Shown piece by piece: positions 2,084 through 60,656 of a DNA stretch of 64,000 bases. The notes beneath the pieces were generated by a model. That model made no database searches. It worked only from the letters and a program-made list of their open reading frames with translations, and had not been told where the DNA came from. A program made the position numbers and the translations under genes. How positions within the stretch are numbered: position 1 is the first letter of the stretch; every line of letters begins with the position of its first letter. The DNA is from Octopus vulgaris (lineage: Eukaryota): assembly GCA_951406725.2 (NCBI GenBank), contig OX597824.1:12400001-12464000 (forward strand). Direction: 5' to 3'.

Positions 2084-2700
2084 AATTATTCTATACAGTG
2101 CAAAGGTGCACCACAACTTGTCAAAAGAGCTTATAAAGCATCTGCAGTAATATATAAATGTCTGGAAAGTGAACAGTGTATGAGTTAGAAACATGCTTGC
2201 GTGTGTATGGAGGAGAGAAAATCAGGTGTAGTGTTGGCGAATCTCAGGAAGCATAGAAGTTTTGAAGGATGCAGTGCTTTGACAACTAACAACTGATGCC
2301 AGCAGTTTGTTCCATGCTTCAGCAACTCTTAGCGTGAAAAATGTTTCCGAAAGTCATGAGAGCTGTGCTGTTTTTCTGACTTTGTAAACATGTCCACGGG
2401 TGTTAGACAGGTGGAGTTTGAAAAGGTGCTCAGAGTTATTGTTTGTACGATGGTTAATAATTTTATGGCTGTCTGCCAAGTCAGCTGCCAGACGTCGGAG
2501 TTTCAATGTGTCCATGCCCAGGGAAGTAAGGCGTTCAGAATATGGCAAATGCCTGATGGAGGGTATTCTCTTGGTTGCACGTCGCTGAACGGTTTCCAGA
2601 ACGATTAATATCTTGGGCAAGATAGGGTTCCAGACTGGTGATGCAAATTCCAGGTGAGGCCGCACCATAGCTATATAAAGCCTCAGGTAGATAGCCAATT
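2050..2700 (-). mobile_element. 5'-truncated CR1/L2-like LINE (RT C-terminus, 3'UTR and simple-repeat tail)
   Basis: ORF 2354-2713 reads LYIAMVRPHLEFASPVWNP..LETVQRRATKRIP..LPYSERL..L..RRL..DL, the typical CR1-group post-RT region; ends at (TAA)n; homologues at 30400 and 51570. Confidence 0.9.
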
Positions 2701-2704
2701 TGTT

Positions 2705-2911
2705 TTCTTTCACTTGTTTCAGTCATTGGCTGCAGCCATGCAGAGGTACCGTCATTAAGAGATTTCAGACGAATAAACCAACCCCAGTACTTATTTATAC
2801 AAAAATCTTGTACTTATTCTATCGGTCTCTTTTGAACTGCTAGGTTACGAGTATGTAAACAGACTAGCACTGATTGTTAAGCTGTTGTGGGACAAACACA
2901 AACAGAAACAG

Positions 2912-41818: not shown

Positions 41819-42830
41819 TCCAAATTTGTATGTTTTATGTATGTATTCTCATGCATATAGTTGCATATATAGATATGTTCATATATATCTGGAGAGTTTT
41901 ACATATTTTTACAGTTCCAGTGATGGATTGGATCTGTAGTCTTCGAATCAGCTTTCCCCTTTCTGGTTTTGAGAAGCCTAATTTCACAAGATTGATATTT
42001 AGGAAATGTGTTAAATTCCCCAGAGGCCCAATAATTACAGGTATACACCTGAGCTTGTAACCTGGATAGAGTAACTGCAGATTTCTCAATAGTTCAGCAT
42101 AAGTGTTCTCTTTTTCACTGATCTTCAGGTTTATGTTAACACCCGCTGGGCAGCTAATTTCCACAACTGTGCACAGTTTCTCTTCTCTGTCCCAAACCAT
42201 TATACCAGGTTTGTTGTGCTTACATTTTATTGAGGTCTTCACAGGTACATTCCACGAGTATTTCCATTTATTATGAGTGGCTATGGCTTCTACCATATTG
42301 TGGGTTCTTATTTCTTTGTCCTCGGGGTCATTCTTCCGACGGATTTCATTATAGGGTGTCCTAGCTACAACATCATGTCTCGTCGGAGGATAATACCGTG
42401 ATGACAACTGCTTATGATGTGGGGGGGGTATTATCTTCAGCATGAACTCCACGAAGTCTACATCGGTCGTCACATTTTACTGCTTTTTCTGCTTCTCTAT
42501 CCCTTTTGTGCATCAGGTACATGGTTGATATTTCCTGTTCCTGGATTGCAAATACATACCCTTCATAGTGGGAGGTAGTAATCCAGCTATTGGTCAATGA
42601 TAAACTGCTTTGATGATCGATGTTACTATCGACACTTCGTGGTTAAAAGACACTGCTGAAGGGATATGATTCGACAAGCAAAGGCATCTTGGATCGATGT
42701 TGAGCCTCTGCCGCCTTCTTTTCGTTTTAGGTAGAGACTGTCTACGTTACTGTTTATGCGTAAATTATGTATGGTTGTTGGTATTTTTCGGGTTTTCACA
42801 TCGGGTTTCCACATTAATGGCTCGGGTCTC
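41819..42830 (-). mobile_element. 5'-truncated R4/Dong-like non-LTR retrotransposon (RLE domain), frameshifted
   Basis: [24 protein letters not shown] zinc-knuckle remnant, RHDVVA, HNKP(G)IMVWD..VVEISCP..EKENTY..IPVIIGPLG; (TATG)n on both sides. Confidence 0.88.
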
Positions 42831-56090: not shown

Positions 56091-56782
56091 ATTTATCTTT
56101 TTTTATATTTTGAAATTTGAACAAATTTTGCCTGTTTTCCAGTCATATGACGATGGAGAGTCAAGTAGAAAAACGAAAGGTTTTATCTGACAACTCAATA
56201 TCTTACTAGTGTGTAAGATAATCACTGTTTTGCGGAGTTATCTTTGGAGCACGGATTTAGAACAGATATTAAATACAGTTTACAAATGTAAAAGCACGAA
56301 GTGAGTGTTTTGTTGCGAGTTTATCCCAATGAGACACTATATTTGTCGGCGTATATGGGGCGCTTCTTTTTATTTAAATGTAAATGTATCGAAATGCTGT
56401 CCTGTGTCTAATGCATCCATATCAAGGGTTAGAAAATGTGTTTTGCACGTGGCCTTAGGGAGCCTGATAAGTATAAATCTGCCAGGCCAAATAATTGTTA
56501 CTAATAACAGAATATTGAAAACAAGCCAAATTATCTCAGCCTGTTAGCATAAACTTACGAAAAGATGCTTACAGTACTCTAGCACTTATGTAGGAAGATC
56601 ACATAACTTCATCATACTCTCTTCCCCAGTGTACATAACCCACTGCTGATATATGTCATACTTTATTTAATTACTGTTATATTTAGGAAAACATTTTTCT
56701 AATATACATGAAAATTCTCCTTGAAAGATGATTGCAATATTAAACTTTCATCCATGGATTAGCTATTTGCAATGAATGGATG

Positions 56783-58381
56783 ACATACCCTTTCGAAGAT
56801 CCGCTCGTAACTAACAGTGCCAACAAACCCAAATAAGCAAGCGAAGAATTTCTGTTCTCCCCTTTCCACCAGCGTGGGTTAAAATCATCAAACACTATGC
56901 TTATTTCGGTAAAATCCGAAGCATTAATTAGAGGGAGATTAATTATAATTTCAACAATTGAGGGTAAAATTAATTAATTATTAATCAATTTCACCAAGTG
57001 TTCAGTATGCAAAGGGACCATTTAAGGCGAATTCAAATTATTACATTATATAAAAGGGCTTAGTAAAATAAATTACTTTGCCGCATACTGAACTCATTAG
57101 AAATAGCAGCTAAAAAACTTTTTTAAAGCTATTTCTAATACTTAAAGAAAATCTCTCTCATATATAGTGTTTGCTTAATTCAACTCACAAAAGTTTGGGG
57201 GTAAGGACATCAAAAAATCGAATGCTAAGGTTATTTGAGAACGTACGTTTCAAGATTAGTCAAAACAACATTTCTATCATCAGCTCAGAAACTCCTTGGT
57301 TTGGATTTGGAAACACTGAAAGTAAGAACATACCCTTTCGAAGATCCGCTCGTAACTAACAGTGCCAACAAACCCAAATAAGCAAGCGAAGAATTTCTGT
57401 TCTCCCCTTTCCACCAGCGTGGGTTAAAATCATTAAACACTATGCTTATTTCGGTAAAATCCGAAGCATTAATTAGAGGGAGATTAATTAGAGAGAGTTT
57501 CTGAGCTGATGATAGAAATGTTGTTTTGACTAATCTTGAAACGTACGTTCTCAAATAACCTTAGCATTCGATTTTTTGATGTCCTTACCCCAAACTTTTG
57601 TGAGTTGAATTAAGCAAACACTATATATGAGAGAGATTTTCTTTAAGTATTAGAAATAGCTTTAAAAAAGTTTTTTAGCTGCTATTTCTAATGAGTTCAG
57701 TATGCGGCAAAGTAATTTATTTTACTAAGCCCTTTTATATAATGTAATAATTTGAATTCGCCTTAAATGGTCCCTTTGCATACTGAACACTTGGTGAAAT
57801 TGATTAATAATTAATTAATTTTACCCTCAATTGTTGAAATTATAATTAATCTCCCTCTAATTAATGCTTCGGATTTTACCGAAATAAGCATAGTGTTTGA
57901 TGATTTTAACCCACGCTGGTGGAAAGGGGAGAACAGAAATTCTTCGCTTGCTTATTTGGGTTTGTTGGCACTGTTAGTTACGAGCGGATCTTCGAAAGGG
58001 TATGTTCTTACTTTCAGTGTTTCCAAATCCAAACCAAGGAGTTTCTGAGCTGATGATAGAAATGTTGTTTTGACTAATCTTGAAACGTACGTTCTCAAAT
58101 AACCTTAGCATTCGATTTTTTGATGTCCTTACCCCCAAACTTTTGTGAGTTGAATTAAGCAAACACTATATATGAGAGAGATTTTCTTTAAGTATTAGAA
58201 ATAGCTTTAAAAAAGTTTTTTAGCTGCTATTTCTAATGAGTTCAGTATGCGGCAAAGTAATTTATTTTACTAAGCCCTTTTATATAATGTAATAATTTGA
58301 ATTCGCCTTAAATGGTCCCTTTGCATACTGAACACTTGGTGAAATTGATTAATAATTAATTAATTTTACCCTCAATTGTTG

Positions 58382-58387
<6 letters not shown>
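56783..58387. mobile_element. young Penelope/retrozyme-like 545-bp monomer in tandem and inverted arrangement with three hammerheads
   Basis: A(56783-56945)B(56946-57294)C(57295-57327)A(57328-57490), then rcB(57495-57842)rcA(57843-58005)rcC(58006-58038)rcB(58039-58387), then (TA)n; HHRs at 57236-57287(-), 57502-57553(+), 58046-58097(+). Confidence 0.8.
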
Positions 58388-58389
<2 letters not shown>

Positions 58390-58437
<48 letters not shown>

Positions 58438-58645
58438 CGTGTGTATGTGTTTGTCTCCCCAACATCGCTCAACAACCGATGCTGGTGTGTTTACGTCCCC
58501 GTAACTTAGCGGTTCGGCAAAAGAGACTGAAAGAATAAGTACTAGGCTTACAAAGAATAAGTCCTGGGGTCGATTTGCTCAACTAAAGGCGGTGCTCTAG
58601 CTTGATCGCAGCCAAATGACTGAAACAAGTAAAAGAGCAAAAGAA
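58390..58645 (+). mobile_element. CORE-like SINE 3' half
   Basis: Family homology. Confidence 0.9.
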
Positions 58646-59790: not shown

Positions 59791-60383
59791 TATTTATTAT
59801 TAATAAATTCAACAATTCTAAAGGTTTCAGTTTCGGTTTTTCAAAATTTGATTTATACACTGCCAGTTACTATAGACATTGCATTCCCGTTTCAAAATCA
59901 TAAGTGGAAACGTCTGTAGAATACCAGTACGCCGACGCTTCCAATTTTCTTTCTTGACTCACTTTTAGCCATTGTGGAAAAATTCCAAAACAAATCAAAA
60001 TATGAAGCTCTTTTTATTTCCGGGAAGGTGAGACTTTACCTGGTAGAGATGAGTTATCTCTCTTAAAATGTAAAAAAATATACGGATAAATGTAATTAAA
60101 AAAAAAATGAAACGATAAAGAAAAAGGATCGATAAAAGAATAATGAAAAAATCGAAGATTAAAAGAAATAACTGAAAATTAGAATAAATGTAGATACGAG
60201 AGAGATCGATGACTCAATAATAAGAAACAGAACAAACGGAGACCAAGGAGAGAGTAACGCAAAGAGATCGATTGCTTATATTCACTACTCGTCCTTCTAT
60301 TATCGATGTATCGATCTTGAGATTACATTGTACTTACTTCGCCCTATTTTCAATTATCCTTCTTCGATTTACCCTTCTACCCT

Positions 60384-60578
60384 TTTACTTGTTTCAGTCA
60401 TTTGACTGCGGCCATGCTGGGGCACCGCCTTTAATCGAGCAACTCGAACCCGGGACTTATTCTTTTGTAAGCCCAGTACTTATTCTATCGGTCTCTTTTG
60501 CCGAACCGCTAAGTGACGGGGACATAAACACACCAGCATCGATTGTCAAGCAATGCTAGGGGGACAAACACAGACACA

Positions 60579-60656
<78 letters not shown>

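Follow-up and report, generated by a model that had tools for sequence, protein, structure and literature searches.

Organization of the locus

The DNA analysed here (the window) comprises 64,000 nucleotides of Octopus vulgaris contig OX597824.1 (assembly GCA_951406725.2, positions 12,400,001 to 12,464,000 of the forward strand), and at 56783-58387 it holds a block of two outward-facing arms built from a 545-nt unit, the left arm on the minus strand and the right arm on the plus strand (Table 1). Unit positions are counted from 57843 (position 1) to 58387 (position 545). The layout described in the earlier note, A-B-C-A followed by the reverse complement of B-C-A-B, was reproduced: read on the plus strand, the left half (56783-57490) consists of A (163 nt), B (349 nt), C (33 nt) and A again with a period of 545, and the right half (57495-58387), the reverse complement of B-C-A-B, has 2 nt in common with the TA run. 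The 4-nt linker at the centre, absent from that note, was added to the layout and would represent a templated or microhomology join. At the other extreme of the left arm, the flank contigs of two sequencing runs (X1 and X2) suggest that the outermost 3 nt are likely a microhomology between target and element.

Table 1. Features of the repeat block, with positions in the window
Feature	Position	Strand	Remarks
Left arm, 708 nt	56783..57490	-	Unit positions 1-545 then 1-163, leftward from 57490; putative inverted 5' part of a trimer
Outer end of inverted arm	56783..56785		3 nt; X1/X2 flank contigs match up to 56785 and diverge beyond
Hammerhead copy 1	57236..57287	-	C3 at 57283
Inversion junction	57468..57494	+	Linker GAGA (57491-57494) within an 11-nt direct repeat (57468, 57483)
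Right arm, 893 nt	57495..58387	+	Unit positions 197-545 followed by 1-545; pLTR-like partial tandem
Hammerhead copy 2	57502..57553	+	C3 at 57506; predicted cut after 57549
Complete 545-nt unit	57843..58387	+	33% GC, without coding match
Segment C (unit positions 164-196)	58006..58038	+	33 nt absent between left-arm outer and right-arm inner ends
Hammerhead copy 3	58046..58097	+	C3 at 58050; predicted cut after 58093
Structured 3' region	58194..58370	+	Two hairpins (58194-58237 and, with 15 bp, 58338-58370) and an 11-bp long-range stem (58240-58250/58323-58333); possible binding signal for the reverse transcriptase
(TA)n run at 3' end	58386..58434	+	Putative target

Only one substitution (57434) and one single-base gap in a C/G run near 57590 separate the three A, three B and two C copies, exactly the two differences counted previously, and the gaaatta/taattaat junction between the end and the start of the unit was likewise found in both arms (56945/56946 and 57842/57843). 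No further copy of the unit occurs elsewhere in the 64-kb window, and no target-site duplication was found, the longest word common to both flanks being 5 nt.

Five reading frames of the unit gave no significant Pfam family (best E 0.069), and searches with its 77-aa and 47-aa frames retrieved no longer homologues, which is weak evidence. The unit contains no open reading frame for a reverse transcriptase or a GIY-YIG endonuclease, and clade membership therefore cannot be assigned. The classes Helitron and MITE were ruled out by eye, as there are no TC...CTRR ends and no terminal inverted repeats. Read-through transcription of 56783-58387 would produce a perfect RNA duplex exceeding 500 bp, which editing or small-RNA pathways could use as a substrate.

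The surroundings are repetitive as well. The left flank holds moderately repeated pieces (56475-56579 and 56685-56785, about 10-170 times the flank depth), so that the insertion appears to have landed in an older repeat. On the 3' side of the TA run, 58434-58643 belongs to an abundant dispersed repeat of about 200 nt; the window holds at least 8 relatives, which are 74-91% identical, and the one at 60374-60584 is inverted. Farther away, a 213-aa frame at 41838-42476 (minus strand) has five homologues at E<=1e-10, of which the two that are named come from Octopus bimaculoides (73% and 59%); we take it to resemble the restriction-like endonuclease end of a non-LTR retrotransposon. The frame at 2354-2722 (minus strand) resembles the C-terminal part of a CR1/L2-type LINE protein.

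The hammerhead motif

Each unit carries a type I hammerhead motif with a palindromic helix III, as the earlier note had recognized, composed of a 4-bp helix I, the core CUGAUGA with an extra U, an interrupted helix II, a further extra U with GAAA, the palindromic helix III and a GUU site. The two plus-strand copies lie 544 nt apart, and the predicted cuts fall where they had been placed before (Table 1). In unit coordinates the cut would follow position 251, and this site is crossed intact in all three copies.

Of 3000 dinucleotide-shuffled versions of the unit, one was matched by a loose hammerhead descriptor, which also found two further weak matches in the 64-kb window, while Rfam gave no hammerhead family at the block at E<=1 or E<=10 and motif pattern scans returned no match in metagenome contigs and none in viral contigs. 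The unconstrained fold (-10.4 kcal/mol, range -7.5 to -12.9) is not hammerhead-shaped and the constrained hammerhead reaches only -2.0 kcal/mol, where Li et al. apply a threshold of free energy below -5 kcal/mol to retrozyme hammerheads in the available text (bioRxiv 10.64898/2026.07.22.740005). The self-dimer duplex of helix III is predicted at -9.8 kcal/mol.

As for conservation within the family, two divergent relatives among the listed loose contig ends of run X14 retain CUGANGA, with changes only at N7 or at the extra base. Variants at conserved ribozyme positions numbered 0 of 24 among the substitutions listed (40 of 67 variant rows), which is not significant (P = 0.30). By eye, common family variants at 57267 and 57271 in helix II would pair better than the window copy. 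A reading of the U.U flanks of helix II and the GUU site as decay was rejected, both being normal in Hydra-clade hammerheads (File S2 of PMC8557442).

Geometry of a linear trimer

When the left arm is un-flipped, its 708 nt, the 33 nt skipped and the 893 nt of the right arm sum to 1634 nt, compared with 1635 for three units of 545, so that the block reads as a linear trimer running from position 1 to position 545, of which the 5'-most 708 nt are inverted. At the unit boundary the left arm's inner end and the right arm's outer end coincide, and 33 nt separate position 163, where the left arm ends on its outer side, from position 197, the innermost of the right arm. The joint chance of both coincidences is about 0.1-0.2% for random ends, computed post hoc, and the 33-nt gap taken alone has a chance of 9-19%.

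This geometry revises two descriptions of the unit given in the earlier note. The monomer had been called circularly permuted, and the arms were seen to start at different points of the unit; these differing starts are accounted for by the 5' inversion of a linear trimer with loss of 33 nt. It had also been called hammerhead-delimited, and the arm ends lie at unit positions 1, 163, 197 and 545 with all three motifs intact; as no end falls at position 251, the unit is not delimited by the ribozyme in DNA and a circle is not needed.

A comparable arrangement arises in L1 elements, whose 5' inversions form when priming by the second target end takes place within that RNA too; microhomologies mark their ends (PMC2912911). 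On our reading, the legend of Fig. 2 in PMC8557442 gives Penelope-like elements (PLEs) a tail of 30-40 nt and places the inverted copy at the canonical 3' end or within that tail. The octopus locus departs from this layout, as its left arm ends 163 nt beyond the junction; the 33-nt gap does equal the length of such a tail, and a PLE-specific resolution step may accordingly stand in place of twin priming.

The family in public sequencing runs

At least half of the words of the unit were present in 20 of the 24 runs listed, which cover 10 studies and three organism labels and of which none is on record as RNA. Coverage was compared in four runs (X1, X2, X14 and X6, the last possibly RNA) against 56300-57327, a segment that contains one unit. 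The summed contig depth of the unit against that of the flank was 2.7e5-1.6e6 against 56 in X1, 5e4-4e5 against 15 in X2 and 9e4-1.1e6 against 25 in X14, so that in each of the three DNA runs the unit exceeds the flank roughly 10^4-fold, the step at 56783 being sharp; this depth ratio is not equivalent to a copy number. The pieces of X1 fall into identity bins of 99% and above, 95-99%, 90-95% and below 90% with 1733, 1601, 1021 and 229 members, indicating a heterogeneous family. Against this background, the base at 57220 is common to all three local copies and absent from about 99.9% of the depth; sharing this rare base and differing at only two sites, the three copies point to one template or one source locus.

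Depth stays high across the head-to-tail junction, and three contigs among the pieces listed (32 of 7679) cross it, with a short side of only 11-28 nt, under the 31-nt rule. In X6, two contigs pass from the junction (56944 and 56951) into TA/CA repeats, and since the flank of one is unlike the present locus, the TA-adjacent 3' end recurs at other sites. The question raised in the earlier note, whether the junction is unique to this locus, is thereby answered in the negative, both junction and TA-adjacent end reappearing in contigs of public runs, the former by those short crossings.

The very abundant family with head-to-tail junctions, the repeat-templated central linker and the missing target-site duplication would also suit an event at the DNA level, in which a piece of a tandem satellite-like array was captured or rearranged during break repair and a template switch produced the inversion. 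Repair is not expected to begin and end at one unit boundary, nor to finish on a TA run as other copies do, and we consider such an origin improbable.

In X1, X2 and X14 the match of the flank contigs breaks off at 56782-56785 without continuing into the element, which fits a young polymorphic insertion, the locus being known from one assembly. The same observation bears on the suspicion that the inversion is an assembly or chimeric-read artefact, either a fold-back or a collapsed repeat: the copies are near-identical, no independent contig joins the element to the present flank or spans the central inversion (no strand switch occurs among the loose ends listed, 24 of 462), and PLE inversions are known to trouble assemblies, as stated in the consulted portion of PMC8557442. 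A fold-back would produce mirrored flanks, whereas the two flanks here are different; the arms have unequal lengths and are shifted relative to each other, with a linker gained and 33 nt lost. Absence from other individuals is predicted by a young polymorphic insertion as well, and the family is real regardless, so that an artefact is very improbable.

Two variants of the family were also observed. A subfamily in X1, X6 and X14 has a different, longer C/A boundary at 56783-56800 and 57320-57327, so unit length varies. One X6 contig joins 56931 to 57321, that is, a copy extending about 14 nt past the junction and then, in the sense of the element, a 5'-truncated copy; this join amounts to a partial tandem with a short tail.

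Origin of the insertion

On balance, the locus probably goes back to one recent event in which a non-autonomous Penelope-type retroelement was inserted, with twin priming on its uncut multimeric RNA. The geometry, the motif, the abundant heterogeneous family and the TA-adjacent 3' ends are observed, while the following scheme makes suppositions about transcription, the enzyme involved, the activity of the ribozyme and the sequence of steps. A tandem source locus would be transcribed from about unit position 1, and its RNA would be left uncut, since cleavage by so weak a hammerhead probably depends on a protein or on a partner copy. A PLE reverse transcriptase/GIY-YIG endonuclease, plausibly of the Hydra clade, would then cut (TA)n and copy back 893 nt from position 545, while the other target end would prime within the RNA, near position 163 of its middle unit, and copy 708 nt to the 5' end of the RNA. 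Joining of the two cDNAs through the short templated linker would be accompanied by the loss of 33 nt. As a variant of the same scheme, repeated template jumps on monomers of one source could give identical DNA. The behaviour in vitro of an Anolis PLE, for which the available text of PMC11167929 describes internal start of reverse transcription, extension of both strands and a preference for uncut RNA, fits internal priming on an uncut template. The trimer geometry itself rests on one locus.

The main competitor invokes circular RNA: the hammerhead would cut multimers into 545-nt monomers that are ligated into circles, and a PLE reverse transcriptase would copy more than one round from each target end. 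Such a template would explain why both arms exceed one unit, why the cut site is crossed intact and why all copies share one haplotype. The monomer is also highly structured, its fold of -146 kcal/mol comparing with -105.5 +/- 6.9 in 40 shuffles (z = -5.9); this score reflects local hairpins, however, and does not favour a circle. Circles have been shown for retrozymes of coral, mussel and axolotl (PMC7229834) and proposed for PLEs (PMC4209133), in the sections of these papers at hand. What copying from a circle leaves unexplained is the sum of the arms to 3.0 units, the stop of the left arm at position 1 on its second pass and the 33-nt adjacency; in addition, the motif is of the weak PLE type rather than the canonical type of known circular RNAs, and eight of nine Xenopus retrozymes tested showed no cleavage in the accessible part of bioRxiv 10.64898/2026.07.22.740005. 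Taken together, we regard a circular intermediate as rather unlikely.

Twin priming on a multimer thus remains the preferred reading. The earlier proposal of copying from a circular or multimeric RNA holds up for the multimer, and the circle is unneeded for the layout. Its wider classification of the block, as a young non-coding hammerhead-bearing element of the PLE/non-LTR-retrozyme kind, is supported.

Significance

The mechanism behind tandem and inverted PLE insertions and the function of the hammerheads in these elements were posed as open questions in PMC8557442, and in vitro work has answered them only partly (PMC11167929). The block bears on whether animal retrozymes move via circles or as plain non-autonomous PLEs. 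Twin priming predicts that inversion breakpoints are adjacent on the linear multimer of positions 1-545 and not tied to the ribozyme cut, and the abundance of the family would let this be counted genome-wide.

A broader and more tentative generalization, possible though short of probable, is that the octopus genome harbours an active, undescribed mini-PLE family of about 10^4 copies whose inverted insertions arise by twin priming on uncut multimeric RNA. If true, this would provide a general mechanism for the tandem and inverted structures of PLEs and show that copying bypasses the hammerhead; one genome would offer thousands of junctions as its test, and any circles would constitute an abundant unrecognized cephalopod RNA.

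Judged by the titles listed, a literature search that lay largely outside subscription papers and Repbase/Dfam found nothing on the octopus hammerhead family, and one of mostly open-access coverage found nothing on twin priming in PLEs or in PLE-type insertion. In O. vulgaris, PLEs make up 6.83% of the genome and fall into 190 families, of which 31 have been active recently (PMC13282606), and the present family may already be catalogued among these 190 in the supplement of that paper. The block is real and young and its kind is already known, while the octopus family and a twin-priming geometry in a PLE-type insertion were not found in print.

Comparison with known elements

The putative inverted 5' segment adjoins a non-inverted 3' segment, presumably of the same RNA, and bears a likely microhomology at its outer end, as in L1 twin priming (Kojima 2010, PMC2912911, consulted in part). 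Unlike L1 insertions, the block has no poly(A) or target-site duplication, its template would be a non-coding multimer and a PLE enzyme is presumed.

Among PLEs, a partial tandem (pLTR) with an adjoining inverted copy is typical according to the available portion of PMC8557442, and both the partial tandem and the inverted 5' copy are present in the block. Minimal PLE hammerheads, as far as PMC4209133 was accessible, share with the octopus motif the core CUGANGA/GAAA/UH, the extra base after A9, the 4-bp helix I and a palindromic helix III able to dimerise; opposite-strand pairs 100-700 bp apart were noted there in 2014, and here the distance is 223 bp. In contrast to those ribozymes, which have a G10.1-C11.1 pair and a helix II of 7-8 bp, the octopus motif has an A-U first pair and an interrupted helix II of 3+3 bp.

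Judged from the motif itself, the hammerhead seems to fit the Hydra clade better than the minimal type. The comparison with this clade was made by eye and by our own count in File S2 of PMC8557442 (2021). Hydra-clade elements have a sense hammerhead upstream of the 3' end in which helices I and III are short, helix II is flanked on either side by an extra U in 14 of 25 families and U stands at the cut in 10 of 25, all as in the octopus unit, and many of these elements likewise lack a G-C first pair in helix II. A (TA)n target is given for 26 of the 27 families listed, one of which has a 5' inverted copy and one of which comes from Octopus bimaculoides; a (TA)n preference is also found in octopus Naiads and is not diagnostic alone. 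The unit differs in having no open reading frame, a length of 545 nt against 2-3 kb and an interrupted helix II. Neither inspection by eye nor a word search in the supplement of PMC8557442 revealed homology to a described PLE family. The O. bimaculoides family, Hydra-1_Obim, has a different hammerhead and, by eye, a 3' end about 30 nt past it, compared with 294 nt from the cut to the 3' end here; its ends do not match the unit save for one 13-nt word, and it does not appear to be the parent of the unit. That word (about 57998-58010 on the plus strand, unit positions about 156-168) agrees at 12 of 13 positions with the start of the Hydra-1_Obim consensus by eye and sits at the outer end of the left arm, which could be chance or a common signal.

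The non-autonomous Chlamys PLEs (for example MRC1) resemble the octopus element in being non-autonomous and having pLTRs and multicopy insertions arranged head-to-tail, and differ in their green algal hosts and in that most have no canonical hammerheads, in the part of PMC8557442 available.

Closest in composition are the animal non-LTR retrozymes, which are built of non-coding units poor in GC, arranged head-to-tail and each bearing a single type I hammerhead, and which occur in thousands of copies (PMC7229834; bioRxiv 10.64898/2026.07.22.740005). LTR, PBS and PPT are lacking from elements of this class. The block has the two or more tandem units that define retrozymes, two on the plus strand and a third on the minus strand, each with a type I hammerhead, and is likewise non-coding, low in GC and multicopy. 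The length of its unit lies between the 51 and 972 bp that Li, Clavereau and Pollet 2026 give as the range; these authors derive animal retrozymes from the pLTRs of PLEs, and their sample of 31 vertebrates, three insects and one coral is unlikely to have included the octopus family (bioRxiv 10.64898/2026.07.22.740005). The circles of Cervera and de la Pena 2020 measure 170-400 nt, which the unit exceeds, and the hammerhead of the unit is of PLE type rather than canonical (PMC7229834); the inverted 5' part of the block is also a feature unlike animal non-LTR retrozymes. The element works like a non-autonomous PLE derivative of this non-LTR-retrozyme kind and probably is one.
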